Assembly: GCA_000165345.1 (NCBI GenBank)
Contig: CM000433.1
Location: 288,001 to 352,000 of the forward strand
Length of the DNA: 64,000 nt
Reading direction: 5' to 3'
Part shown: positions 1 through 15,161 of the stretch, piece after piece
How the letters are laid out: each line of letters begins with the position of its first letter
Position numbering within the stretch: position 1 is the first letter of the stretch
Translations under genes and position numbers: made by a program
The notes under the pieces: generated by a model
The model's database searches: none
Told to the model about the DNA's origin: nothing
What the model saw: only the letters and a program-made list of their open reading frames with translations

Positions 1-1287
1 AAGCGAATAAGCATATTTAATATTAAAAGGAACATTAGATTCGAATGATTTTGAATTATATACAGTTACAAAATGGATATTTGCATTTTCATATTTACCA
101 ATTTGAAAATATGCATCTCCTAATGTCAAATGTAAATCAATAAAATCTTCTAAGCTGTTATATTCATTTATAATTTTAGAAACTTGGAGTGCGGGAATGT
201 AATTTCCAAAATTAAGATTTGCCACTGCATATTTGGTTGCAATATCAATTGGAACGTTTTTCAAAAATTGATTATCAATTATTTCATTAGTATTATGTTG
301 AGTTAGTTGATTAAATATCGAATTAAAATCATTTGATTGAGTATTCATTTTTCCAAAATAATTATGAATTAGATCAACACACTTCTGGTATAATTTCAAA
401 TCAATATAAACTTCGCATAACATATTAACGATATTTATGTCATCACAATACTCTATACAGCTTTCAAGAATTTCCGCTGCTAAGCTCAACTTTCCAATTT
501 TATGATAGCATCTAGCAAGCTCTTTCCCCAAGAGTGGGTCGCCAGGGTGCCTCCAAAATAATATTTTTAGCTGTTGTATACACCTATTAATATCATTTAC
601 TGAATAATATGCACTACTAAGTTCAAACCGTATTTCATCTTCTAATTGTGCAGCCGATTCTTGCCCACCTAAATTCTCAGAGTATTCTATGTTTTTAATA
701 CATTTAGAGTAACAGTATATTGCTCTGTTCCAATCTTGAATTTCAGCACTCATTTGTCCTATTCTTCTCCATAAAAAAAAATCGGTGCTTACTAGGTGAG
801 CAGCAACTAAGTAAAATCCAATTGCCTTTTCTTTATCATCTAGTTCTTGTTCATATATAAGACCCAGCATATGGAAAGGGTCATGTAATCCTGGAGCTTT
901 GACAACGATTTCTTCGAGTATTTCGATTGCTAAGATGAATTTTTTTTCTAAATAAGCATCATTAGCTCGTTGCAACAATTTCTCGATTTCAGTTGAAACA
1001 TTTTGTTGTGACTTAGTTTTTTTTCGATGGCTTAAGTCTCTTCTTCTTTTCCTTTCATTTGAATATTTCGAAGTGCTAAATTCAAGTGAAAGCATGTTCT
1101 CAGAATCAGATTCGTCTTCCGAAAAATTATCAAAAAATTGGCTTAAAATATTTGAACTTTGACCATTTTTAAGCCCAGAATCACCAAATTTTAATAATTC
1201 ACCCATGTATGGCAGCTCTAATATATTTTGTTCATCATCGCCAATTTCATTGCTAAGTGAAGATGTAGTTGGATGAATTGTATTCAT
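1..1287 (-). CDS. TPR-repeat protein, TFIIIC subunit Tfc4/GTF3C3-like; 5' part only, the ORF runs off the window start
   Basis: Open frame from ATG at 1287 to position 1 (429 codons, no stop). Acidic/Ser-rich N-terminus, then TPR-like helices including '...KEKAIGFYLVAAHLVSTDFFLWRRIGQMS...', which resembles the AAHL...W motif of TFIIIC TPR subunits. Absent from the ORF track because no stop lies in the window. Confidence 0.45.
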   Translation of the reverse strand, partial: MNTIHPTTSSLSNEIGDDEQNILELPYMGELLKFGDSGLKNGQSSNILSQFFDNFSEDESDSENMLSLEFSTSKYSNERKRRRDLSHRKKTKSQQNVSTEIEKLLQRANDAYLEKKFILAIEILEEIVVKAPGLHDPFHMLGLIYEQELDDKEKAIGFYLVAAHLVSTDFFLWRRIGQMSAEIQDWNRAIYCYSKCIKNIEYSENLGGQESAAQLEDEIRFELSSAYYSVNDINRCIQQLKILFWRHPGDPLLGKELARCYHKIGKLSLAAEILESCIEYCDDINIVNMLCEVYIDLKLYQKCVDLIHNYFGKMNTQSNDFNSIFNQLTQHNTNEIIDNQFLKNVPIDIATKYAVANLNFGNYIPALQVSKIINEYNSLEDFIDLHLTLGDAYFQIGKYENANIHFVTVYNSKSFESNVPFNIKYAYSL

Positions 1288-1440
1288 AATTATAAGTTTA
1301 GTATATGCCGCATTTTAAAAAATATGTATTAAAAAAAACCAAATAAAATTTCAAAAAAACACTTGAAATTGTTTACTCATGAAAATAATCACATCCCATT
1401 TTCTTTGGGATAAACAAACATTTTAGTAATAGCCTGGAGT

Positions 1441-4360
1441 TCATTCATTAAAATATTTTGTTTTCAATACTTCTGCGCAAGACCAGTTGAAGTCTAATTT
1501 TGTATCTTGGAATTGCTTGCACTTATTGGAAAGACTGATAGTACTTAAGTCATTTTCGAATGGTCCCAACTGATTAATTTTTTCAATGTAAAATAGGGAT
1601 CTCTTAAAATCCTTGTTAATGAAAAATATCAATGCTTTAGTATGAAATTTAGATTTTAAAAGCGAAATCGGATCGGAATCATTTACAGTATTCAATACAT
1701 GATAAATTACTGTAGGGTTGCTTTTCCCTTGCACAACAACAACATCCAATGGGCATATTACAAACCTTTTCTGCACTTCTTTATTTACGAAGACATTGTT
1801 ACTTATTATTATGTCTGCAGAATAACGCCTAGTTAAAGATTCGATTCTACTGGCCAAATTAACTCCATCACCCATAATTCCGTACTTCATTCTTTTACTG
1901 CATCCAATGTTCCCAATCAGGACGTGATCTGTATGAATTCCACACTTAATGTTAATTTCTGGAATGTAGTTATTTCCGAAAGATCTAGATTTTAATTTTA
2001 ATTGCTTTTTCATTTTTAAAGACGCAGCTACCGCAGCTGCTGAATGGTTTTTAACAGCCATAGGTGAATTCCAAATTACTAGGATTGCATCTCCAGCAAT
2101 TTCTAGTAGGTTACCATGAAATTCTTCGATTATTTTAACCATTTCATCAAAATAATTAGTTAATAAGTAAAACAGTAATAATGGGTCAATCCTTTCTGCA
2201 ATACCAGTAAAACCAACAATATCTGAAAATAGAATTGTTATTTCCTTATACTGAGGACTAAGTGTTGAAAAGTCAAACTTCCTTAAGAGTGACGCTGCGA
2301 CACCTTGCGGAAGATATTTAGAGAGCGAATCCACATATTTTTTCAGAGATTCTGCGCAATGATTGGATAAAAACTCTGATAAATAGTCATTCATTGATAA
2401 ATTAATCTGAGAATTATCTTCATTAGAAAAAGACAAATTCTTTTCAGCTAACTTCAAATTACCATAAATCAAATCATACTTGTTTATTATTCGATTGTAA
2501 CTTTTCAATGATGAAGAAAAATACATCTGATCTACTTTAAGATGAAATATTGAACTTAAAAAAATAATCAGAAAATAAAAGTATTTCTGAATTATAGATG
2601 CAGTACAGTTGGCTTGAGAATATTTGTTGCCATAACTATTAATGATCGTCTCTATAGTAGAAATGAAAGTTACTGCTGCGAAAATAAATAATGTAATGTT
2701 GTAAAACGATTGTTCAAAAATAATTTTTCTATTCAAAAGTAAGCAAGACCCATTAGTAATGTCAAATAAATTGGTGTGGCAATCAATTCTATTCAATAGC
2801 TTTTTTTTGCAGTCCAAAGAAACTAATAACATCTCAAAATCTTCATAAGTTAGTTTTTTCTTGTTTGAAATGTATTCCTGATAACTTGAGATGCCAGTTT
2901 TCCTGTAAAAGCATATAAAACCATTAAATTCCTTACTGAACAGCCTCGGCAACCTGCGATCATTAAACTTCAGAGAAATAAAGAAAGATTTAAGAATAGC
3001 GAGTATCTGTGACTTACAAAATAAACAAAGTTTAAGGTAAACTAGTTTAAAATGTGAATAAAATTGATTATAAATTAGCATGAAACGTTGATTATTATTT
3101 GAATTTTTTGTAAATTTTCGTTCCTTTAAAGATAAAGTGGGAATATTGTATTCTAACCCGAAGAATTTATTTTGAATCCAATCAAAATTTTGAAACAAAA
3201 TATGTATACAATGATTGGTTAACCAGATTGCTTTGATCAAAAATATCGATTCCTAACTTTGTACAAATACTTTCGAATTCGGAAGATGAAATCATTGAAC
3301 TTATATCATTGCTAATAGAATAAAAAATTTGCTTGAGCTGAGTCCTGATAATTTCCGTAACTTGGAATTTATTATACTTGTTAGTAAATTTGCACTGAAG
3401 AATGAAAATAATACGATAAATATATGAATAATATAAAAGTTGAGCATAAATATTAAAAAATTCTTTAATTAGGCCCTCACTGCCATAAAAGTATAGAGTT
3501 GTTAAAATCAAATGGATCATTTCTATAGCCATGCCCATTTTTGGTATAGATTTCCAATTAAAAATATAGAAAAATATATCGAAGCAAATATTAATTACAG
3601 ACAAAGCAATAATTATAATCTCTGAGAGATGATTAATGGATATATATTTGCTTCTCAATATATTTATGTTCATAATGCGTATAACTTGAATTGCTAACTC
3701 TATTAATGATTTGCTACAAATTTTATAATATTCATTCAAAAACTTTAACAGGATAATTGAAACTTTATTATTTTCATGATTTGAAAATAACTGGACACCT
3801 TTTTTTAAACCAAAAAAATTATTAATGTCGTGAATAATATACTTATCAATATTTTTAATCTCAATACCAGGTGATGAATGATCTTGCCTCAAAGTATTAA
3901 GATTTTTTATATGTTGAAAATTTAAATCAGAAAGTTGTAACCGATTAACATGATTAATTAGTAAGTCAAATAACGGTAAGATACAGTTTCTGTGCGTTTT
4001 TATATTAATTACTCGACGCAGACGCCTTTGTTCCTTTACCAAATGCTGATTTTCATTTATGTATATTAATTCCAAAAAATCAAAATCTTGATAGGTCGAT
4101 AAAGATTTAGTGCTATTCAATATATTTTTAAAAGAGCATAAAAAATTGATTTCCTTTCTAAACGAGAGTTTTTTCAAATTAGTATTACATTTTTTTAAGT
4201 AATTTTCTTTCCGATTGGGACTTTGTGTAAACGCAAAAAAGTCTAATTTCGTCCCGGTTCTAATTATAGTTTCAACATTATTGCCCAATAAATTGGTGAA
4301 AGTTGAGTTTAAATTATTGGAATAAAATTTAATTCTATAATTACTATGGTTAATCTGCAT
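1441..4360 (-). CDS. Class III adenylyl/guanylyl cyclase with an N-terminal polytopic, ion-channel-like domain. Encoded as two overlapping ORFs (4360..3182 and 3240..1441) in frames differing by +1.
   Basis: ORF 1441..3240 carries a canonical cyclase homology domain ('ILFSDIVGFTGIAE...EIAGDAILVIWNSP...GIMGDGVNLASRIESL'). ORF 3182..4360 has several hydrophobic helices and a basic 'RRLRRVINIKTHR' segment. Both frames are open across 3182..3252. Deleting one T from the T5 run (plus-strand A5 at 3239..3243) fuses them: ...KLGIDILIKAIWLTNHC.... No credible GT..AG intron lies in the overlap. Confidence 0.7.
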
Positions 4361-4453
4361 ATATTACATATTTGCCACTAAGTTGCAGCTATTAAACAAA
4401 TACTTGATTATGCGGTATCAAATAAAAATACAAAATATGTGGTTAATTATATA

Positions 4454-5278
4454 TTAAAGTTCTTCTCTAGCTGTTGAGATTACATCATTTTCGAAGCTGT
4501 CGGTATTATTAAGAACGTTTGATGTCTTTGTTCCATTAGATATGCTTGAATTTGCTGTCAAATTTTCATGTTTTTCCTTCATTTCCCACCAAACGTGCAT
4601 ATTTGGAATTTTTAGTTTTTGGTCCTTCAATAATCTTGGCCAAATAGTATTAGGCTCCTTCTTAACTAGAGTGCAGGATAGCTTTCCAACAGATCCAAAT
4701 GACCATTCAGATAAATCTGAATCAATATTATCGAATAGCTCGAGTTTAAGAACATATTTTTTTTTTTCGTGTGAATGCGATCCCATTGCAGAAAAAAAAA
4801 ATATATTATCACGAATTGAGACAGTTTCATTTTCTATTTTCAATGCACCCGGAGCATTCCATCTGTAAGTAAACTTTATGTTCAGATATACTTGATCAGA
4901 TGATTGTGCCCATTGAAATGCAGGGGATAATGTTGCAATCTCACTGTGTTTTTTGTTTAATAATCTAGTTAGTTCATTTAACTCTCTTCTAATTGAGAGT
5001 TCCACAGAACGAACAACTGGACTTAAATCAATACCCTGCTCATGCGTTTTAATAATTAATTTCCTTGAGAGTATCCACCAACCTCTCGAAATTGAAGTAT
5101 TTAAATCATCTGCAATTATATTTCTTGTTAATTTTTCAAATATCTGTATTGCATCTGCTTCAGTTTGAGAACTAGCAAAGATAGATGTGTTATTATGCCC
5201 TAGCTGTTCACAGAAAGTAAAGCTACCTAGGAATACAATTAGAAACAAAGAGAAAAAGTAAGTTAGCATATTTTTCAA
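4454..5278 (-). CDS. Secreted protein with a possible CS/p23 (HSP20-like beta-sandwich) domain
   Basis: 274-aa ORF with an N-terminal signal peptide (MLTYFFSLFLIVFLGSFTFC). Middle region 'WAQSSDQVYLNIKF...VSIRDNIFFFSA...KKKYVLKLELFDNID...WSFGSVGKLSCTLVKKE...W' loosely fits a CS-domain pattern. Confidence 0.4.
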   Translation of the reverse strand: MKNMLTYFFSLFLIVFLGSFTFCEQLGHNNTSIFASSQTEADAIQIFEKLTRNIIADDLNTSISRGWWILSRKLIIKTHEQGIDLSPVVRSVELSIRRELNELTRLLNKKHSEIATLSPAFQWAQSSDQVYLNIKFTYRWNAPGALKIENETVSIRDNIFFFSAMGSHSHEKKKYVLKLELFDNIDSDLSEWSFGSVGKLSCTLVKKEPNTIWPRLLKDQKLKIPNMHVWWEMKEKHENLTANSSISNGTKTSNVLNNTDSFENDVISTAREEL

Positions 5279-5466
5279 TATTCTGAAGAAATTCCAATAT
5301 TACCGCAATTTTATCATCAAGCCTAAATTTCATTTAAAAACAAATTAATAAATTAATATCCAATATGGAATTAAATTAACGATATTTTTGTACTTAAGCT
5401 AACCAATTAATCTTATTTTATTCTTATGAAATTTTTATATACTGAGTGCGGATAAACTTTTATTAA

Positions 5467-6769
5467 ATGAATAAAGTTCTGGTAGTAGATAATGGCTCAT
5501 ACACCATTAAAATTGGATATTCAGGTGAAGAATTACCTAGGTAAGTTGAATTTCTTACCAAAAATATTTTAATTCTCTTAGGCATTGCTTCCCAAATTGT
5601 ATCGGAAAAGTTCGAAGAAAAGATAAAATTTATACATCTGATCAAATTTACAGCTTGAATGAATATTTTTCTTATTGTCCATTTTCTGAAGGCTTACTAA
5701 TTGATGTTTCAATGGAAAATGATATTTGGGAATATATTTTTAATAAAATGAATATTTCTCCAGGGGATATTGGTTTATTAGTCACTGAACCATTTCTAAA
5801 CCCATCCTCACTTCAGCATTCTCTTTTCGAAATAATCTTTGAGCAATTTGGTTTTAATAAGGCAATAGTTACAAATCCTCCTGCAATATCACAGTTTGCA
5901 TTCAATCCACAGCTAATTCCCAATACTGAGCAGCAAGTAATTAATCCTTGCTATTTGATTTTAGACTGTGGCTATCAGTGTTGTTTTAGTGTCCCATTTT
6001 TTCAAGGCTCACCAATTTATAAAGCTTGTAGAAGATTGGATATTGGCGGATATCACTTGGATCTTGCATTAAAAAATTTTCTTTCACTCAGACAAGTTGA
6101 TTTATCTAGAAGCTCTTTAATTGTCTCAAAAATTAAAGAAAGTTGCTGCTATATTTCTAAAAATTTTGATCTTGATATTAGCAGGTCGCCAGGAAATAGT
6201 CCTGATAATTTGGTGGAGCAGATATATCAACTCCCTGAATTAAAACCAAACAGTAAGAATTCAAACTTCTACTCTCAGGAGTGTATATCTCCAGATAATA
6301 TTGAACTTGAGAATTTCAATTTAAAAATGGAATCCGAATCTAGCGTGAATTGCGACCCTAGCAGAATCATTAAACTTTATTCTGAAAGGATTACTGTTCC
6401 GGAACTTTTATTTAGTCCTTCAAACGGAGGTTATAACTTTACAGGAATTGCCGACATGGTATCAGAGTCAATCTTATCATCCCCAAAGCATCTCCAAGAG
6501 CTTCTAGCGAATAATATATTGTTAATAGGAGGCTCTACTAAATTCAGAAATTTCGAAGCGAGATTAAATAAGGAGCTTTCCTCTCTACTACCTTCGGTAA
6601 GTTTAAAACTTAAACACTATCATTCAACTAACTTAAGAAGTCGTGGAAAATAAAAACAAGAAAATGCAATCAAAGACCTGACTTCACAACATGGGCAGGT
6701 GGCTCAATTTGGGGAGAAACAAACTTTGATACATATGCACTTTCAAAAAGTAAATACAATGAAATCTGA
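5467..6769 (+). CDS. ARP6: Actin-related protein Arp6, 3 exons: 5467..5540, 5582..6596, 6638..6769
   Basis: Exon 1 'MNKVLVVDNGSYTIKIGYSGEELPR' ends at a GTAAGT donor. A 41-nt intron and AG acceptor put exon 2 in the frame of ORF 5655..6653 ('HCFPNCIGK...LLIDVSMENDIWEYIF...LLVTEPFLNP...LILDCGYQ...'). A second GTAAGT donor at 6597 and an AG at 6636-6637 join an unannotated 3' exon encoding the actin-fold C-terminus 'KSWKIKTRKCNQRPDFTTWAGGSIWGETNFDTYALSKSKYNEI*'. Block-by-block similarity to human ACTR6. Confidence 0.8.
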
Positions 6770-6841
6770 CAAAAATTTTGTAAACATTACAATTGTTTGA
6801 TATAAATCAATTTATTTGAATTATTTAAGCGGCCCAAAAAA

Positions 6842-6866
6842 GTTCCCCGTCGCACGCGGGGATAAC
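6842..6866 (+). promoter_or_regulatory. GC-rich imperfect palindrome (CCCCGTCGCACGCGGGG) about 50 bp upstream of the RRM gene ATG
   Basis: It is an isolated GC island in an AT-rich intergenic region with CCCCG...CGGGG arms, so it could form a hairpin or be a cis element. It is of the same class as the other upstream GC motifs listed here. Confidence 0.3.
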
Positions 6867-6913
6867 TTTCTGTTTTTTCTACCCATTTATACTTTTCACA
6901 TTTCCTTCGTAAT

Positions 6914-7675
6914 ATGCCAGAGGCAAAAAAACGGGGAAGAAAACCAATTTTTCGAAAAATGGAGGAGGATAATTCTGAGCCACAAACATGCCAAGCTGAA
7001 GAAGGCAATAGCCAAACCCAACATGAATTGGAACAGGCTGAACCAATTCAAGAAGCTACAAATGCGGAGTCAGATGAGAAGAACCAAGTAGCCCCTCAGA
7101 TTGAACGAAGTAATGATCCTTCATGTACACTCTATGTTTGCAGGCTTTCTTTAAAAACAAAAGAAGATGACTTACGCCGGCTATTTGAGGATTATGGTGA
7201 AGTAACTGATTGTCATTTAGTTACTAATCCATTATCTGGCGAAAGCAGGTGTTTTGGGTTCGTAACTATGGGTAATGAGGAGGAAGCAGCGCGTGCAAAA
7301 GATGCACTGGATGGGAAAGAATATCAAGATGCAAGTTTGAAGGTTGAGACAGCAAGACGTGCTAAGCCATATGATCCCACTCCAGGAGAATATAAAGGGC
7401 CCCAATATCGATCAATTAAATATAATTCAAGAACTGGGTATTCTCGTTCTTCACATCGTGGCAATTCATTTAGACATTCTACTAGGAGTAGATATGACTA
7501 TCCACCGCCATCTCATTCGAGGGGTGATCAATACAACAGACACAATGATGACTATTACAACAGATACTATGATAGCAGATACCCTAGACCGGATGATTAT
7601 CACTCCTCTAGGTACCACTCACCGCCACGTTATTCTAGAGCAGATCCGTACGACTCAAGATATAGCAGACGATAA
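6914..7675 (+). CDS. RRM-containing RNA-binding protein with a C-terminal RS/RY-rich low-complexity tail (Tra2/SR-protein-like)
   Basis: RNP-type RRM ('LYVCRLSLKTKEDDLRRLFEDYGEVTDCHLV...CFGFVTMGNEEEAARAKDALDGKEY'), followed by an Arg/Ser/Tyr/Asp-rich repeat region (RSRYDYPPPSHSRGD...RYHSPPRYSRADPYDSRYSRR). Confidence 0.7.
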   Translation: MPEAKKRGRKPIFRKMEEDNSEPQTCQAEEGNSQTQHELEQAEPIQEATNAESDEKNQVAPQIERSNDPSCTLYVCRLSLKTKEDDLRRLFEDYGEVTDCHLVTNPLSGESRCFGFVTMGNEEEAARAKDALDGKEYQDASLKVETARRAKPYDPTPGEYKGPQYRSIKYNSRTGYSRSSHRGNSFRHSTRSRYDYPPPSHSRGDQYNRHNDDYYNRYYDSRYPRPDDYHSSRYHSPPRYSRADPYDSRYSRR

Positions 7676-7837
7676 AGTTATTAATCAAACTAAAATTAAC
7701 TAAATTTACTGTTTTTACAATATCCAGTCTAGAATAGAGTTTTGTACATTTCAAATTTTCCCGTCTTCTTATTCAGATTCCGCTTATTTCCCGTATTTTC
7801 CCCTTTTGTTCCCCCTTTTATTTTTATTTTATGAAAG

Positions 7838-8659
7838 ATGCAAGAAATTGATTACAAGTTGGTGAATGGAACTCATAGTCTCTTGACAACTTACTTTCTC
7901 GTCTCGACTGTTGCTGTAATTTTTTCCAGCGTGGTCCGGTTTGCTAATTTGATCACGACTCACGGTAAACTTCGCAAGAAGAATTTATCCTCAGAGAATA
8001 TTGGAAGTACCTCAACTGATAAGGTAATTTATTTAATATTGGGGTTGAGCGTGAATAAAGGGTGGTTTCGTTATTTCTATCTAGTTGGGGTATTCACAAC
8101 ATTAATTTGCGTATATTTAGGCTATCCAAATTGCCACAGATTACTTTTTTTTTTAATACATGTGATTAGAAGGCTATATGAAGAAGTATTTATTTCATAT
8201 CATAACACAAATTATAGTAAAATGAGTATTTTTGTATTTTTATTTGGTATATCATACTATATTATAATGCCTATAACATTATTGGCTACCCAAGATTTCT
8301 ATGGGAAATTTGTAGTTTTGCAATATATATCTTTCGCAGCATTTTCTTTAGTTCAATATAAAAGTCATGTTAAACTTTCAAACATTAGGAGAGCAAATTC
8401 CGAGGAGTATGGTATTCCTTATGGTGGTATGTTTAAATTTGTTAGTTGCCCACACTATTTCAGCGAGATTGGAATATATATATCATTATTTTTTGATGCT
8501 ATTTTTAATTCAAATAATTTGCATATTGCGGCCGCTCTATTATATATTATTAGTTGTATGTATTTAAATGCAATACGAGCACATAAATGGTATATTAACT
8601 ATTACAAGGAGTCATACCTATCTCTAAATCGCAAAGCAATTATTCCATATATTGTTTAA
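7838..8659 (+). CDS. Polyprenol reductase / steroid 5-alpha-reductase family membrane protein (SRD5A3/DFG10-like)
   Basis: Polytopic 273-aa ORF. It has the N-terminal 'HGKLRKK...VNKGWFRYFY' and the C-terminal catalytic-region signature 'YGIPYGGMFKFVSCPHYFSEIGIY...H.WY..Y' typical of the SRD5A/TECR family. Confidence 0.7.
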   Translation: MQEIDYKLVNGTHSLLTTYFLVSTVAVIFSSVVRFANLITTHGKLRKKNLSSENIGSTSTDKVIYLILGLSVNKGWFRYFYLVGVFTTLICVYLGYPNCHRLLFFLIHVIRRLYEEVFISYHNTNYSKMSIFVFLFGISYYIIMPITLLATQDFYGKFVVLQYISFAAFSLVQYKSHVKLSNIRRANSEEYGIPYGGMFKFVSCPHYFSEIGIYISLFFDAIFNSNNLHIAAALLYIISCMYLNAIRAHKWYINYYKESYLSLNRKAIIPYIV

Positions 8660-9051
8660 TTTTCTGATAATATCATTTTTAGGCGTCCATCCTTCCAAGA
8701 TTCATACGGATTTCTGATTATTCTAAATTCAATGTCATTTAAACTTAAATTTGGTGCATTAAGATTAACACCTAGAATGTGAAACAACCAATAATTATTC
8801 TGTAATCTTTCTGCGAGCTTCCATTCATTGAAAGAAATACGAAAAAAGTTCTTTTCTTTTTTTGATGATGATTTAACTTCAACAAATATTTCCTCCTTTG
8901 TTCCTCTTGTTTTATCCATGAAAACTAAAATAATGTCGTAAGGAAGACCCGATTCTGCTGTTTCATTAACCCAAGTTATATTGAAATAATCAATTCCAAG
9001 CTCGTTACTAAACTTTTCTTTCAAGGAATCAAAGGCTAGTTTTTCTCCCAT
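8656..9051 (-). CDS. DUF3883-like (PD-(D/E)xK restriction-endonuclease-fold) domain ORF. It is probably the frameshifted C-terminal domain of the upstream giant gene.
   Basis: 131-aa ORF 'GEKLAFDSL...WVNETAESGLPYDIILVF...EEIFVEVKSS...FFRISFNEWKLAERLQNNYWLFHI' matches the DUF3883 pattern (G-E-x-L-A; WV..E; YDI; [VI]EVK[ST]; F.[IL]S.NEW..A). Its frame is open upstream of its ATG. It sits 11 nt after the stop of ORF 9063..15161, in the +1 frame. Confidence 0.6.
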   Translation of the reverse strand: MGEKLAFDSLKEKFSNELGIDYFNITWVNETAESGLPYDIILVFMDKTRGTKEEIFVEVKSSSKKEKNFFRISFNEWKLAERLQNNYWLFHILGVNLNAPNLSLNDIEFRIIRNPYESWKDGRLKMILSEN

Positions 9052-9062
9052 CTTACCTATTT

Positions 9063-12000
9063 CTAAAATATCTTTTTTGGACAGTTAGTATTATATTCTA
9101 TTTGAAGTTCTTCGTTTAATTGAACATCATTGCTCAATTTAAGAGCAGCATTATCCACATAATCAGATAATAGAAAATACTTTAGATCAATTTTAATTCC
9201 AATTTCTATTTCTATCTTCTTAATCCAATTAATTATAAATTTATCCCAAGCCATTTCATTTCTCGAAGATTCGAATTTCTTGATTGCATCTTTGAATATA
9301 TGTTTTGTTACCATGATGCTTTTTAAGTTTGGATAATATTTTGGAAAGAAAGAAGTAATAAATGTGAGGATAGATAAAAGTGCCTCTTCAATCTCATCAC
9401 CACCTAATTTATTTTGGTGTTTAACATACAGCTTATTTGTTTTAAAATCGAATAGAGCAGGAGTATAAAATGATTTTTCCAAGCATTTAATAGAAATATT
9501 CGTATTAGAAACCACTATATTGCTTTTTGAAATTAATTCGCTCCAATTTTTTCTTTTTTTAACTTTATCCTTAATAGATTCTTCATACAGTGGCCCAAAT
9601 ATATTAATAATTATTTCAAAATAAAAGGTTGAATCTAAACTGAGCTCAGTATTAGGATAAATATCTAAACTTAGATCTTCTGAATTCTTAAATAATTGAA
9701 AACAAATAGTATTCCAATCGTGGGTTAGTTCATCAAAATCTAAATTTTGCATATTTAAACTTGGCTGCATAATCGTAAACATGATAGGGGACCATACGAC
9801 TTTTTTTTCTGAAAAAAACCTATATGCAAAATGATGAAATAACATGGAATTTGAAAATATAACTTCATTATTATCTCTAATTAAATCTGCATTTAACCAT
9901 ATACAATAATTATTTTTTTTAATAGTTGGCAAATTTAGTAAACCATATAGAATAGTTTTGTCATATTTATATAGTTGAGTAACAATACTTACATATGTCA
10001 ACAATTGTTTTGAGTCTGCTTCAATTCGCTTTATTTTATATATTTCTATTAAATGAGCGATTAGATGCTTTCTTTCAGGATTTAAGGGAACTCCAAGTAA
10101 TAAAAAGAAACTTAAAATATCATTGATTGAAATACTTAATTTGTAAATATTAGAAAATTGGTAAAACAAGGAGTGGCTTTTTGGTAATATATTCTCATCA
10201 CTCCAATATAACTCCTCTAGATTCTTCCAAATTAAATTCTTGCATTCATCTTGAAAAGGAAACCGCAAATTTTTCCTTAAAGTGTCTAAAGAATTCATTG
10301 ATATGTTTGATTTAGATTCTTTAATTATTAATTCTAGCAATGAAATATATGAACTTGGATTTATTTGATTTAAATTATATAAACTTATTTTGTAGAAGCT
10401 GGGATTATGTAAAGCTTCAATTAATGAACATAAATACTCCAAGCTAATTTCTGTTATAGTAGAAAATGCATCTGATAAGGTAATCGACATGTTTTTTTCT
10501 GTATTATCCAAAATTAAAAAATTTACAAATTTTGATATTACTTTGTGATGCTGAGTATTAGTATATAACGTCAACATTTTTGGTGGACAAAGGTGTTGAA
10601 AAATGAAATTGTTGTTTGATAGGTATTTCGAGACAAAAATTGGATATGATGAAAACTGAAGCTGTACAAATGAAGGCTTTTTTATAATTTCATGAATATT
10701 GATAGACCAATATATTTGAATTTCTTCCCAGAAATCGCAAACACAATTTATTATTTGATTTGATATTGTCGTTAGTGTCTCTTCAAAATATTCATTTCCA
10801 GTATTTTTTGATAACATATCATTCATTATTATTGCCAGTGACTCTATTCCATGACAGTAGAAATCTGTTATTGATATAAAATTTGATTTTTTAACATTAT
10901 AAATAGATTCAATATGTTGATCTATTAACTCACTATTGTTTAACTTACTAACTGACCTGAGATGCTCCTGATAGTCATTTAAATTATTAAATTCAACTTT
11001 TTCAAAATAGAAAGGTAAAATTGACACTCCAAACTTGCTAAAATATGAGTTCCAAAATGATTCATCAGCATACTGGAGATATTTTTTGCTAAATGCGTGA
11101 TAAGAAAAATTGTTAATTAAATCCTCATTTTTACTATCCAAAATCCGTTTAATGTTTTCAATTAGCGAATACTTCTTGCTGGTAACAAATAAATGAAAAT
11201 TTTTTGGTGATATTGGTAATAATTCATCATTTGAGTCAGCTGCAAGTGTCTGTTTATTGCTGGTCGGACTATAATTTGATTTTGCAAGTAAAAAAGTAAA
11301 GAAAATATGATCATCTGTGCTAATGTCGTTGCAGTCAGCAAGACTTTCATAAATTATTTCATAATACTCATCAACTTTAAGGAATGATGGCCCAAGAATT
11401 TGAATAAAATTAATTATCTTGCTATAAATAAATAGTTCATCTTTAAAAAACTCTTTTAGTTGAGAAATAAAGTCTCTCTTAATAAAGTGTATTCCCAACT
11501 TTGAAATTGAGGGCATATCCTCTTCCATAATAAATAACTGTTTTTTAGAATTAGTATCAATTGGTTCTATATATCGACCTTCTTCTGTTAGAAACAACGG
11601 TAAGCGTTTTAGCTTTTGCAAATCAAAATTAATATCTGCATAAGAATCAATTAAATTTTCAATCAAAAGAAAAAGATTAAAATACCATTCATAATTTCTG
11701 CCAAAATAAGAATAATCAGAAATTATTCCTTTAATTATATCAACCAAAATATCTATATTGAATTCAGTTATTCCTAAATCTCTCAATAAAATATTCTCTG
11801 TATTATTTGCGAATGCATTATTAATTAAAAACTTATTAGAATATTTTTTTAACAAATAAGAAAATTCATTAATATTTGGAAAAATATCTAATAATATTTT
11901 AAATGTCCTTGAGTCATTATTTATAAAAACAGAATTTGAAGGTTGTATGAATATTTTTTCGCATGTATAAATACATTTTTCATTTATTAAAGCTTTATTA

Positions 12001-15000
12001 ATTTTGGGAATTATTGGTATGAAAAATTCGTCTATATTATCAGCTTTTGTTGGTAATATTCCTAGAAACGACTTCTTTAATAAATGAAAACCATTTGTTT
12101 CACGTAACTTTGATATTAAATAAATAATTGCATTAGGTATAATTTCGCGAATATAAATGTTCCAATTTGAATCAATTGATATTGATTCCCTAGATGATGT
12201 AAGCTCGAAGTCTGCTTGAAGTATAAATTTCAATCCATATGACCTAATAGGCAAAAATGAAAACACCTCTTTATTGTCATAATTACATTCTCCATCAAAT
12301 GTATCTGATTCGTTATTTATTTCTATTCCAATAGCCAAATTGTTTAATTTTTTATTTTTAACCAAGTTTGAAATATTTTTGGGAATTTCAAAATTATAAT
12401 TCACAATTAAAAATGATTTTGTAATATTTCTATTGGATGAAAGTTTTCGCTTCTTATTTGTGGGATCACACATTATGTGTTTAAAAATATTTACCAAGAT
12501 TAAATCTTTTGAAATTAACTTTTCAGATCTTGTTATTACCGTAACCCTATCATTAGTAATTAGTTTAATTCTTTTTAATTTATTTGTAAATAGGATTATA
12601 TTATCATTTAATTTTAAATCTTCAAAAATTATATCTTCTTTATAAGGGAGCCAAAATTTAGTTTTATAAGTAGAAACTTCTATTTCATACTCATTATGAA
12701 ATTTGTGATTTGGAATTAAATTATATAATTCTTCATCAACCCATTCCGGAAAAATATAGGATCCATGCTTTGAATTTAAGTTGAACTTGAAACAATAGCC
12801 ATTACTAAAAATAAATGGAGTGTTTGTAATTAAAAATACGCTTTTAAATCCGATTCCAAAGCAACCAATTTTCTTTTCATTAAAAACTTTTGAGCTATTT
12901 CCAATATCACAAATTGAACTAATATCTCCTTCAGTAAATCCAATTTCATTATTAATTACAAGCACACCATTTTTGTGAAATACAAAAATAATTGAAGGTA
13001 TTTTTCCAATACAAGAACAATACTGGTTATCATCAGCATTTTGTATCAACTCGAATATAAAGTGATTAATTTTCGTGTAAAGTTTAATTGATAGATTTTT
13101 GCATGATTGATTTATTATACTAGTGTAATTTTGAATTATCTGGTTATAATCTTTATCAAGAGCTTTTTCTGAAATACCAAATTTTTGTTTTTGAATAGAC
13201 AAAATAAAACTTTTACAGTCAAAAATATTTATGGACTTATAGTTTGAACAATATTCACATCTTAACTCTTCAAAAATAAATTCATCTTCAGTAGACATTT
13301 TTACTAAGCATTCATTTTCTTCCAAACTATCTTCAACTTCAAGCGATATTGTTAAGTTTAAAGAATTGCAATAAAACTTGTTATAAAAATCATTTCTGAT
13401 TTTGGAAGGTAAAACCTGAATTAACTTATTTAGTTCAGAAATATTGTTATTTTTTGATATGCTTTCAGATAATGATTTAACAAATTCGTCTCTTTCAACC
13501 TTTAAAACAAAAAGAATTGTCATTAATAAGTAGTCCCATAAGTCCAAATATAGAACTGGAGGGCAAATTCGCAAAATGCAAGAAAAAAAATCAATTAAAT
13601 TAAATGATTTACAAATACATGATGATATATCAGTTCTTAGTATTTCTTTTGGAAATAATTTAATAAAGTTTTCAACTCCATTTTCTTGAATACATCCGCC
13701 TATAAAATAATTTAAAGTGTTAATCTCATTACATTGAGCTATTGAATCAATCATCAAGGAATAATAAGCATGTGCTGTAGAATATTTTTCACTATTAGGC
13801 TTTAAAATTTTATATATGCATATTTGGCAATTATTAATTTTTACGTTTGTTGATTTAGGCTTATTACCATTTTTTGAAAATTTGATAAAATTAAAATGTC
13901 TTAATAACTCGTTATCAATATTCTTATCTAAAAATTCTGTTAACTCTCCATATCTAATATGGTTATTTGCTGAATACCAAAATAAATGATCATATAAATC
14001 AATTAATATTGGTGCTGAATGAATAATTTTTACTAAATTATTTGAGAAAAAACCATCGTTAAGAGAATCATTTAAGCTTGAAATTAATAAGTCAGTCTGA
14101 TTAATTTTAAGAGATAGTAAATCAACTACTCGATTATTTTGTTTTACATTGCTTTCGACAAGAAACGCTTCTCTAGTCATATCTTCAAGGCTTAAACCTA
14201 ATAAGTCTAAATCTAATCCAAATTCCTCTATTAAAATTAAATTAATTGATTCTTTGATAAATTTTTGATCAGTTTGATTTAAATATCTTTTAACCGTTTT
14301 AAAGATTGTATGAAAAAATTTACAATCAAATTGATCAGACTTTTTGCCTAATTTTTCATCTTCAAATCGTAAACAAATACCATATGTCGAAAAAAACTCT
14401 AAAATTCCACTAGTTAATATTTCTTTGTTTGTATTTGATATTGTTTTTTGACTAAAAATCTTACTTAGAACATAAAAAATACTGGTAGAATTGAAAATTC
14501 CTATTCCTTCCAAAGAACTTGACTCTATTGCCTGAAGAAAGTCAATAATTGTAGAATAATCGTTTCTATTAATATTTGATAATGAAAAATTTATCGAGTT
14601 CAATAACGAGTCTACTTCAATCGAATTTCTCATATGATTTGCATAATTAATTGAATTAATAAAATTGTCATCTTTTGTTTTTATTAAATGATATCTCCAT
14701 GAAATTGAGCTTAGAGATTTTAAAATAGCATAAAGTACTCTTTTATATCTTTGTTTTGATTCTAGAGAGAACAGATCTTGATTTTCTAGAAAATTATTGA
14801 AATGAAAAAGTCTATTTATTGATTTCAAAAACAAGTTGAAATGATTTTCTGCCTTATCATAGCATGATGCAAATGAATTTTTTGTATTAATATCGTTTAA
14901 TATTGAATATATGTTAAATATCTCGCGACTATATCTCGATTGAAATTTTTTTGAGACTGCTCTAATATGTGAACAAAATGACTTATCTTTGCTTGGGCAA

Positions 15001-15161
15001 GTACACTCAAAAAGAAGCATATCTACAATTCGATAATCTGTGCTGAATGAGCAAACATTATAAATATCTGGGTCTTTATCACAAAGCATAATGCCATGGG
15101 GGTTTTGAGTAATAATATCAACTTTCTTATTCATTGTTTCGAAAGTTATCACATTTTTCAA
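9063..15161 (-). CDS. Giant (2032 aa) SWIM zinc-finger plus sacsin/NO VEIN-type GHKL ATPase (HATPase_c_3) protein
   Basis: N-terminal SWIM-type motif 'CTCPSKDKSFCSHIRAV'. Central sacsin-repeat/GHKL signature 'FIFELIQNADDN...GCFGIGFKSVF'. Single uninterrupted ORF. Terminates in an A6 run (plus-strand T6 at 9073..9078) immediately before the DUF3883 ORF. Confidence 0.7.
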   Translation of the reverse strand: MKNVITFETMNKKVDIITQNPHGIMLCDKDPDIYNVCSFSTDYRIVDMLLFECTCPSKDKSFCSHIRAVSKKFQSRYSREIFNIYSILNDINTKNSFASCYDKAENHFNLFLKSINRLFHFNNFLENQDLFSLESKQRYKRVLYAILKSLSSISWRYHLIKTKDDNFINSINYANHMRNSIEVDSLLNSINFSLSNINRNDYSTIIDFLQAIESSSLEGIGIFNSTSIFYVLSKIFSQKTISNTNKEILTSGILEFFSTYGICLRFEDEKLGKKSDQFDCKFFHTIFKTVKRYLNQTDQKFIKESINLILIEEFGLDLDLLGLSLEDMTREAFLVESNVKQNNRVVDLLSLKINQTDLLISSLNDSLNDGFFSNNLVKIIHSAPILIDLYDHLFWYSANNHIRYGELTEFLDKNIDNELLRHFNFIKFSKNGNKPKSTNVKINNCQICIYKILKPNSEKYSTAHAYYSLMIDSIAQCNEINTLNYFIGGCIQENGVENFIKLFPKEILRTDISSCICKSFNLIDFFSCILRICPPVLYLDLWDYLLMTILFVLKVERDEFVKSLSESISKNNNISELNKLIQVLPSKIRNDFYNKFYCNSLNLTISLEVEDSLEENECLVKMSTEDEFIFEELRCEYCSNYKSINIFDCKSFILSIQKQKFGISEKALDKDYNQIIQNYTSIINQSCKNLSIKLYTKINHFIFELIQNADDNQYCSCIGKIPSIIFVFHKNGVLVINNEIGFTEGDISSICDIGNSSKVFNEKKIGCFGIGFKSVFLITNTPFIFSNGYCFKFNLNSKHGSYIFPEWVDEELYNLIPNHKFHNEYEIEVSTYKTKFWLPYKEDIIFEDLKLNDNIILFTNKLKRIKLITNDRVTVITRSEKLISKDLILVNIFKHIMCDPTNKKRKLSSNRNITKSFLIVNYNFEIPKNISNLVKNKKLNNLAIGIEINNESDTFDGECNYDNKEVFSFLPIRSYGLKFILQADFELTSSRESISIDSNWNIYIREIIPNAIIYLISKLRETNGFHLLKKSFLGILPTKADNIDEFFIPIIPKINKALINEKCIYTCEKIFIQPSNSVFINNDSRTFKILLDIFPNINEFSYLLKKYSNKFLINNAFANNTENILLRDLGITEFNIDILVDIIKGIISDYSYFGRNYEWYFNLFLLIENLIDSYADINFDLQKLKRLPLFLTEEGRYIEPIDTNSKKQLFIMEEDMPSISKLGIHFIKRDFISQLKEFFKDELFIYSKIINFIQILGPSFLKVDEYYEIIYESLADCNDISTDDHIFFTFLLAKSNYSPTSNKQTLAADSNDELLPISPKNFHLFVTSKKYSLIENIKRILDSKNEDLINNFSYHAFSKKYLQYADESFWNSYFSKFGVSILPFYFEKVEFNNLNDYQEHLRSVSKLNNSELIDQHIESIYNVKKSNFISITDFYCHGIESLAIIMNDMLSKNTGNEYFEETLTTISNQIINCVCDFWEEIQIYWSINIHEIIKKPSFVQLQFSSYPIFVSKYLSNNNFIFQHLCPPKMLTLYTNTQHHKVISKFVNFLILDNTEKNMSITLSDAFSTITEISLEYLCSLIEALHNPSFYKISLYNLNQINPSSYISLLELIIKESKSNISMNSLDTLRKNLRFPFQDECKNLIWKNLEELYWSDENILPKSHSLFYQFSNIYKLSISINDILSFFLLLGVPLNPERKHLIAHLIEIYKIKRIEADSKQLLTYVSIVTQLYKYDKTILYGLLNLPTIKKNNYCIWLNADLIRDNNEVIFSNSMLFHHFAYRFFSEKKVVWSPIMFTIMQPSLNMQNLDFDELTHDWNTICFQLFKNSEDLSLDIYPNTELSLDSTFYFEIIINIFGPLYEESIKDKVKKRKNWSELISKSNIVVSNTNISIKCLEKSFYTPALFDFKTNKLYVKHQNKLGGDEIEEALLSILTFITSFFPKYYPNLKSIMVTKHIFKDAIKKFESSRNEMAWDKFIINWIKKIEIEIGIKIDLKYFLLSDYVDNAALKLSNDVQLNEELQIEYNTNCPKKIF

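Follow-up and report, generated by a model that had tools for sequence, protein, structure and literature searches.

A membrane class III nucleotidyl cyclase gene of Cryptosporidium parvum, split in two by a probable one-base error of the Iowa II assembly

Results and Discussion

A cyclase gene read in two frames

The DNA analysed here, a stretch of 64,000 nucleotides that we refer to as the window (NCBI GenBank assembly GCA_000165345.1, contig CM000433.1, positions 288,001 to 352,000 of the forward strand), comes from Cryptosporidium parvum, in agreement with the apicomplexan origin that had been proposed from the letters alone. Close to its start two open reading frames (ORFs) lie on the minus strand, an upstream one at 4360..3182 that encodes 392 amino acids (aa) from an ATG and a downstream one at 3240..1441 that encodes 599 aa from a TTG, and the two overlap by 59 nt. 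The downstream ORF carries the motifs FSDIVGFT, EIAGDA and GDGVNLASRIES of a class III nucleotidyl cyclase. Both ORFs, their overlap and the cyclase motifs are as described in an original prediction, which had read the pair as one gene, for a channel-like domain fused to a cyclase, broken at a homopolymer. The two ORFs are indeed the halves of a single gene, and the features of the gene and its protein are collected in Table 1.

A search with the joined protein found orthologues of full length (955-978 aa) in C. hominis, C. ubiquitum, C. canis, C. felis and other species, all of them collinear with it from end to end and with no gap at the junction. At the same locus and among the same neighbours, the newer C. 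parvum assemblies encode a single protein of 972 aa (P0055, QOY41564.1 / CPATCC_0023100), which has also been deposited as WKS77783.1, WRK32275.1 and KAL5368559.1 under the name 'membrane associated adenyl cyclase'. This protein occurs on 24 contigs, among them those of three NCBI assemblies and of independent short-read assemblies. The upstream ORF (392 aa) has exactly the sequence of XP_626079.1/EAK88118.1, a 'hypothetical protein [C. parvum Iowa II]', and XP_626078.1/EAK88117.1 (546 aa), annotated as 'membrane associated adenyl cyclase with 2 transmembrane regions...', is a form of the downstream ORF that begins at an internal Met. A spurious T, described below, caused the annotation of one gene as these two proteins. 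The products of the same gene in C. hominis TU502 are XP_665945 and XP_664857. A literature search for the identifiers of the gene found nothing. The gene is a known one, its unbroken model is publicly available, and the artefact is already corrected in the newer assemblies.

The frame had been thought to break in a run of five T on the coding strand (A5 on the plus strand). This run exists, and it is unchanged in five other C. parvum assemblies (CP044418.1, CP029784.1, CM109965.1 and two short-read assemblies), all of which are one base shorter at 3197..3200, the true site of the break. The extra base falls between the codons of Y387 (3202..3200) and L388 (3198..3196), and Y387, L388 and F389 are invariant among the Cryptosporidium orthologues. 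In the protein alignment the orthologues keep to the upstream frame through FDQS.LV.QSLYTY and follow the downstream frame from LFQNFDW; since they leave the upstream frame only at that point, the frame must change near the 3' end of the overlap and not at the T5 run. The junction peptide is ...GIDIFDQSNLVNQSLYTY followed by LFQNFDW, or in a longer form ...KLGIDIFDQSNLVNQSLYTY followed by LFQNFDWIQNK. The junction proposed earlier, ...KLGIDILIKAIWLTNHCIHILFQ..., does give an open frame but with 14 wrong residues, in disagreement with all orthologues. Deletion of a T from the T5 run as a repair is ruled out by the orthologue junction together with the five assemblies.

Table 1. Features of the cyclase gene and of the protein it is predicted to encode (positions are those of the window)
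Feature	Residues (aa)	Position	Strand	Basis or remark
Whole coding sequence, one intronless gene, 972 codons and stop (TGA 1443..1441)	1-972	1441..4360	-	all 972 codons equal P0055 once one base of 3197..3200 is skipped
N-terminal hydrophilic region, genus-specific, poorly conserved; holds RRLRRVINIK (aa 112-121)	1-212	3725..4360	-	
Four hydrophobic helices H1-H4; place of the S1-S4 voltage sensor of relatives	213-325	3386..3724	-	hydropathy; predicted local distance difference test (pLDDT) 60-77
EF-hand-like motif 1, LKQIFYSISNDISSMISSSEFESIC	340-372	3245..3343	-	sub-threshold Pfam
T5 run, proposed earlier as the error site		3239..3243	-	same in all other assemblies; no difference reported, not the error site
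Real frame break, coding T4 (plus-strand A4) against T3 elsewhere		3197..3200	-	base absent in L001-L005
EF-hand-like motif 2, ISNKKKLTYEDFEMLLVSLD	490-520	2800..2892	-	low-confidence model and weak BLAST match
Transmembrane helices TM5 and TM6, loop about 12 aa	551-607	2539..2709	-	hydropathy; no pore loop, no GXG after TM6
Predicted helical linker from TM6 to the catalytic domain	608-701	2257..2538	-	aligns with relatives from about aa 633-672 on
Class III nucleotidyl cyclase catalytic domain	702-883	1711..2256	-	PF00211
C-terminal extension, helical, TPR-like, end NWSCAEVLKTKYFNE	884-972	1444..1710	-	

The additional base as an assembly error

Over 61,863 of its 64,000 bases the window was compared with C. 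parvum IOWA-ATCC CP044418.1 (about 309.8-373.8 kb), from which it differs by 0 substitutions and three 1-bp insertions or deletions (indels), at 3200, 9070 and 20007. When positions 1..14360 of the window are set against L002 and L003, two of the five assemblies, there is not a single mismatch, and the only differences are one-base indels at 3200 and at 9070/9071. Each of the three indels lies in coding sequence and interrupts a reading frame that the other assemblies have whole, namely those of the cyclase, of a 2,159-aa SACS/NOV_C protein and of a 337-aa gene. The absence of substitutions beside three frame-breaking indels points to sequencing or assembly error and, as had been supposed, the gene is very probably split by a one-base error, here of the 2004 Iowa II assembly, rather than being a pseudogene. 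The same high probability is meant for the reading as a whole, that of a single gene with an artefactual break that encodes a membrane class III cyclase and not ACα, the channel-cyclase fusion of alveolates.

A real frameshift in the sequenced Iowa II stock, leaving either a pseudogene peculiar to that strain or two products that are expressed separately, would agree with a split that stands in the deposited sequence and is annotated as two proteins. It would, however, require that three coding 1-bp indels broke conserved ORFs with 0 substitutions in 61.9 kb against an assembly of the Iowa lineage. Among the 15 billion proteins of a collection, P0058 and P0060, the two split products, each come from one contig only, and the downstream half has no sensible start, the annotated Met being internal to conserved sequence, all of which makes a real frameshift very improbable. 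That the frame is restored in the cell, through a short intron or programmed ribosomal frameshifting where the ORFs overlap by 59 nt, is hardly conceivable: nothing beyond the overlap itself speaks for it, the other C. parvum assemblies, lacking the extra base, read straight through, and the orthologous proteins are collinear and gap-free at the junction. No intron is needed, and the original prediction had seen no plausible short one in the overlap.

On the preferred reading of an assembly error, frame-breaking 1-bp indels would occur in the old Iowa II sequence of the window at a rate of about one in 20 kb (three in 62 kb), and split models such as XP_626078/XP_626079 should not be taken for pseudogenes or for separate proteins. 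The errors had also been described as homopolymer-associated, with a companion case at 9073..9078. This second case is a frame-breaking one-base indel at 9070/9071, beside the run rather than within it. Only one of the three indels, the first, lies in a run of at least 4 bases; with the second beside its run, 'homopolymer-associated' is too strong a description. The G+C content of the AT-rich window is 25-37%.

At 9070/9071 the window is without one A (plus strand TA-TC against TAATC in five other assemblies), which splits the 2,159-aa SACS/NOV_C protein into a 2,032-aa ORF (9063..15161) and a 131-aa NOV_C ORF (8656..9051), both on the minus strand. The indel at 20007 is an extra A in TATACTT relative to CP044418.1, outside any homopolymer, and divides the 337-aa ORF of the newer assemblies into 20003..20701 and 19687..19983, also on the minus strand. 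Three assemblies from other isolates (L001, L004 and L005) additionally differ from the window at 2302 and at 340 (T against C), the change at 2302 being synonymous within the cyclase gene.

Catalytic domain and predicted substrate

The catalytic domain matches the Pfam family PF00211 (Guanylate_cyc) with 83.4 bits against a cut-off of 21.9 (E=2e-23, aa 702-883), and there are 52 cyclase matches in the PDB. The best match of solved structure is Pseudomonas aeruginosa CyaB (3R5G, E=4.9e-28), a class IIIb adenylyl cyclase with which all catalytic residues align. Alignment to 3R5G and to Synechocystis Cya2 (2W01) identifies D713 (2221..2223) and D757 (2089..2091) as the metal-binding residues and N834 (1858..1860) and R838 (1846..1848) as those of the transition state. 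The base-specifying residues are E753 (2101..2103), four residues ahead of the second metal-binding Asp, and G827 (1879..1881); all six codons are on the minus strand. As all six residues are present, and invariant in 9 orthologues, the enzyme is predicted to be active. By its sequence the protein is a class III nucleotidyl cyclase that is anchored in the membrane and has one catalytic domain, and it comes closest to the class IIIb enzymes of bacteria. The C-terminal extension that follows the domain is kept in the gregarine, in stramenopile and in many bacterial class IIIb cyclases, and some relatives match PF07719 there.

In homodimeric class III cyclases two chains pair to form two active sites across the dimer interface. 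In the Cryptosporidium enzyme D713 and D757 of one chain would hold the metals, and the site would be completed by E753 and G827 of the other chain, which would contact the base, and by its N834 and R838 at the transition state.

Among the best 119 matches from outside Cryptosporidium, the pair of residues at the specificity positions is Lys/Thr in 101 and Glu/Gly in 12, the recorded example of the latter being the top match, P0063. CyaB has Lys/Thr at these positions, in contrast to the Glu/Gly of the Cryptosporidium protein. Cya2, also of class IIIb (phmmer E=8.5e-24), resembles the Cryptosporidium protein in its Glu and Gly at the base-specifying positions and in being a single-domain enzyme that forms homodimers and bears a C-terminal extension. 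The Synechocystis enzyme is a guanylate cyclase, and its E488K variant is an adenylyl cyclase (PMC5995499); the variant (6FHT) differs from the Cryptosporidium protein in having Lys at the position of E753. With the Glu/Gly pair as in Cya2, and with a change of Glu to Lys converting Cya2 to an adenylyl cyclase, we infer a preference for GTP, or at least a non-canonical specificity. The annotation 'adenyl cyclase' is derived from homology, and the 'adenylyl' part of it is unproven. Cya2 differs further in being bacterial, with a periplasmic CHASE2 sensor and a measured activity, where that of the Cryptosporidium protein is predicted.

Signalling through cyclic GMP (cGMP) and its dependent protein kinase, PKG, is central to the motility and egress of apicomplexans and is a target for drugs. 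If the parasite had a second source of cGMP, as is predicted here from two residues only, this would matter in such a setting.

The membrane region and the search for a channel

Hydropathy gives six hydrophobic segments in the protein. From a cytosolic N-terminus (1-212) the chain would pass through four helices (213-325) into a cytosolic insert of about 225 aa with a degenerate pair of EF-hand-like motifs, and from there through a pair of helices with an outer loop of 12 aa between them (551-607) into a 95-aa helical linker, the cyclase and the TPR-like tail. An AlphaFold2 model of the full protein, made from a 9-sequence alignment, was unusable (pLDDT 36, with even the cyclase domain unfolded). 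The basic segment RRLRRVINIK, which had been noted as part of a channel-like region, is a non-conserved hydrophilic stretch about 100 aa ahead of the first hydrophobic helix and not an S4 helix; its counterparts are RSPRREINIK in C. hominis and KCVRPVTNTK and RCECPVRSIN in other species.

A K+ selectivity filter and the charge periodicity of an S4 helix, for which it had been suggested that the N-terminal domain be searched, were found in none of 11 orthologues. There is no G.G, as expected of a GXG pore motif, within 75 aa after TM6 in 11 of 11, and the loop between TM5 and TM6, about 12 aa in each, is too short for a pore helix and filter. Helix 4 (YSYIYRIIFILQCKF) never has more than 2 basic residues: the 11 orthologues have 1 or 2, with no S4 periodicity, and its R315 is replaced by Cys in C. 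felis. The Pfam family Ion_trans (PF00520) has no match at E<=10 in 8 orthologues, and neither does a profile of aa 1-679 against the PDB at the same threshold. An exhaustive HMMER search with the aa 1-679 profile through 1.84 billion representatives found only three clusters, all of them of Cryptosporidium, where each 50% cluster is represented by one protein that may be truncated (for example P0071, of the 90% cluster of the gregarine protein described below). Weak lists from fold searches are rich in cation channels with six transmembrane helices. Within the best explanation of these results the protein is, as judged by its sequence features, not an ion channel.

Two EF-hand-like motifs are found between the fourth and fifth helices. 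The first has the form IFYSISNDISSMISSSEFESIC in Cryptosporidium, with the consensus loop DNDMSLMISSSE in most other species, and the C. parvum loop, SNDISSMISSSE, has no Gly at position 6. At the same position the gregarine homologue has VDEDLDGFINDLQ, with the near-canonical loop DEDLDGFINDLQ. The second motif has a weak BLAST match (E=0.036) to the gregarine YSFNDFERRLVGAD, and a low-confidence model pairs the two motifs through a beta-bridge between aa 357-358 and aa 502-503.

Relatives in alveolates and stramenopiles

A profile of the cyclase and tail finds relatives at E 1e-72 to 1e-55, with 35-40% identity and 99% coverage of the query. The full-length proteins that cluster with them are eukaryotic, and those that we call Family 1 comprise Triparma columacea GMI38202.1, T. 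laevis GMH57832.1, the 949-aa GHVP01003676 of Polyrhabdina sp. (the eugregarine from which the GHVP01 transcriptome derives) and the metagenomic P0185, P0203 and P0206; P0197 and P0205 are likewise proteins of this family. Family 2, also eukaryotic, emerged from a further search; it consists of P0208, P0212, P0213, P0209 and P0210 and includes Cvel_811 of Chromera velia. The cyclase motifs are FSDIxGFT, E-x-x-G-D-A-I-L and KYGxxGDGVN in Family 1 and FCDIRxFT, K-N-I-G-D-A-F-L and ASYLSPNVN in Family 2; the Chromera-type proteins of Family 2, like CyaB, have Lys where the Cryptosporidium protein has E753. The Cryptosporidium protein shares with Family 1 the motifs F(S/T)DI.GFT, LLE.(I/A/V)GDAIL and KYG(V/I)(L/M)GDGVNLASR and the end W..(A/S/G)E(V/I)L..K.F. 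In a neighbour-joining tree of 228 columns with 100 bootstraps, Family 1 forms a clade with Cryptosporidium among its members in 87/100, Family 2 is recovered in 100/100, and the two families are sisters in only 4/100. On this grouping the Cryptosporidium protein belongs to a family of membrane cyclases, related to ACα, that is restricted to alveolates and stramenopiles.

Within Family 1 the Triparma and metagenomic members have a Pfam Ion_trans match that is confined to S1-S4, with an Arg-rich S4, and the stramenopile proteins differ from the Cryptosporidium protein in this and in a TM5-TM6 loop of about 130 aa. The gregarine protein forms a bridge between the two layouts: its four helices are followed by a near-canonical EF-hand loop and an insert, and TM5 and TM6, with a long loop between them, precede the cyclase. 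It is like the Cryptosporidium protein in length and in the EF-hand after helix 4. The Cryptosporidium helices themselves are without significant similarity to the sensors of the relatives: the N-terminus has no significant match to the Triparma-type or to the gregarine N-termini by hhalign or hmmsearch.

Families 1 and 2 are alike in architecture, each with a sensor, two transmembrane helices, a cyclase and a TPR-like tail, and have a near-identical S4, TRAGRIVRLVRLxR. Their cyclase domains differ (Glu/Gly against Lys/Ser) and are separate in the tree. Members of Family 2 carry PF26726, which is absent from the Pfam copy that was scanned.

Comparison with ACα

The architecture of ACα has been described as a polytopic N-terminus, a single class III cyclase and a TPR-like tail (PMC5746546), and the Cryptosporidium protein is like the alveolate ACα proteins (Plasmodium ACα and the Paramecium and Tetrahymena fusions) in all three, as well as in its restriction to alveolates and stramenopiles and in a presumed topology with both termini inside. 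This resemblance, the Ion_trans S1-S4 of the relatives of its cyclase module and the abundance of six-helix cation channels in the weak fold-search lists would all suit a genuine ACα-type K+-channel/adenylyl cyclase, its frame interrupted by one T too many in the T5 run, as the original prediction had it. Such an enzyme is nevertheless improbable here. The T5 run is identical in all assemblies, with the difference sitting at 3197..3200, and the orthologues stay in the upstream frame through FDQSNLVNQSLYTY. The protein differs from ACα in lacking any Ion_trans signal, the charges of S4 and a GXG motif, in a TM5-TM6 loop that leaves no room for a pore loop, and in the EF-hand-like insert between helices 4 and 5. 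Its specificity positions hold Glu/Gly instead of Lys/Ser, and the low bootstrap value for a sister relationship of the two cyclase clades also stands against it.

Prole & Marrion (2012) gave XP_626352 of C. parvum and XP_666311 of C. hominis as the homologues of adenylyl cyclase/K+-channels. These are different genes from those of XP_626078/9 and of XP_665945 and XP_664857, and a separate canonical ACα candidate is therefore present in Cryptosporidium. With the defining features of the channel not found, the protein described here would not be a canonical alveolate channel-cyclase ACα.

Origin of the four-helix region

Since the relatives of the cyclase module bear S1-S4 at the same position, a degenerate channel-type ancestry is plausible for the Cryptosporidium N-terminus, and unproven. 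It would be most economical for the N-terminus to descend from a voltage sensor that lost its gating charges, the former sensor now being a membrane anchor and a dimerisation or regulatory module, possibly one that responds to Ca2+. The four helices might instead be unrelated to voltage sensors, a lineage-specific anchor of independent acquisition that became joined to a class IIIb cyclase of bacterial type. The N-terminus has no significant similarity in sequence or profile to any voltage sensor, and the nearest bacterial cyclase domains are used with other sensors (CHASE2, PAS, HAMP), which keeps an independent anchor a serious possibility. We judge it to be somewhat doubtful, as the protein is collinear with its gregarine and stramenopile relatives (four helices, two helices, linker, cyclase and the same tail), has its EF-hand-like motif directly after helix 4, as in Polyrhabdina, and groups by its cyclase module with proteins that bear voltage sensors.

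Descent from a voltage sensor, if combined with the predicted substrate, suggests a wider proposal. Cryptosporidium, gregarines and some stramenopiles may share a previously undescribed family of homodimeric cyclases, apart from both ACα and the P4-ATPase guanylate cyclase, in which a membrane domain derived from a voltage sensor (in Cryptosporidium degenerate and interrupted by a pair of EF-hands) is joined to a Cya2-like Glu/Gly site. As a conjunction of all these parts the proposal is tentative and rather unlikely to hold in full. If it did, the parasite would have in its annotated 'adenyl cyclase' a second cGMP source, possibly one modulated by Ca2+. The Glu/Gly signature and the degenerate sensor with its EF-hand insert, prediction only as they are, would seem worth the notice of specialists in apicomplexan signalling.

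Several points weigh against the interpretation that we prefer. That the window and not the newer assemblies is in error appears probable from the agreement of independent assemblies and from conservation, and not from reads. The substrate prediction is drawn from two residues only. The first EF-hand-like motif scores below threshold with each of EF-hand_7, EF-hand_6 and EF-hand_1 of Pfam (E 0.12-1.4). The link of the N-terminus to voltage sensors is without statistical support: hhalign against the voltage-sensor profile of the relatives gives a probability below 1%, with all hhalign probabilities below 3%, and the hmmsearch score against the gregarine N-terminus, 1.4 bits, is equalled by 7 of 400 shuffles. 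Finally, Family 2, with Lys/Ser, fits the published description of ACα, and its putative identity with ACα is drawn from its architecture, from a Chromera member and from features of class IIIb enzymes.

A neighbouring gene

Upstream of the cyclase gene, on the plus strand, lies an actin-family ORF at 5655..6653 of 332 aa. The newer assemblies annotate a longer gene of 381-405 aa in its place, which suggests an intron or an upstream exon in a region that is otherwise poor in introns.

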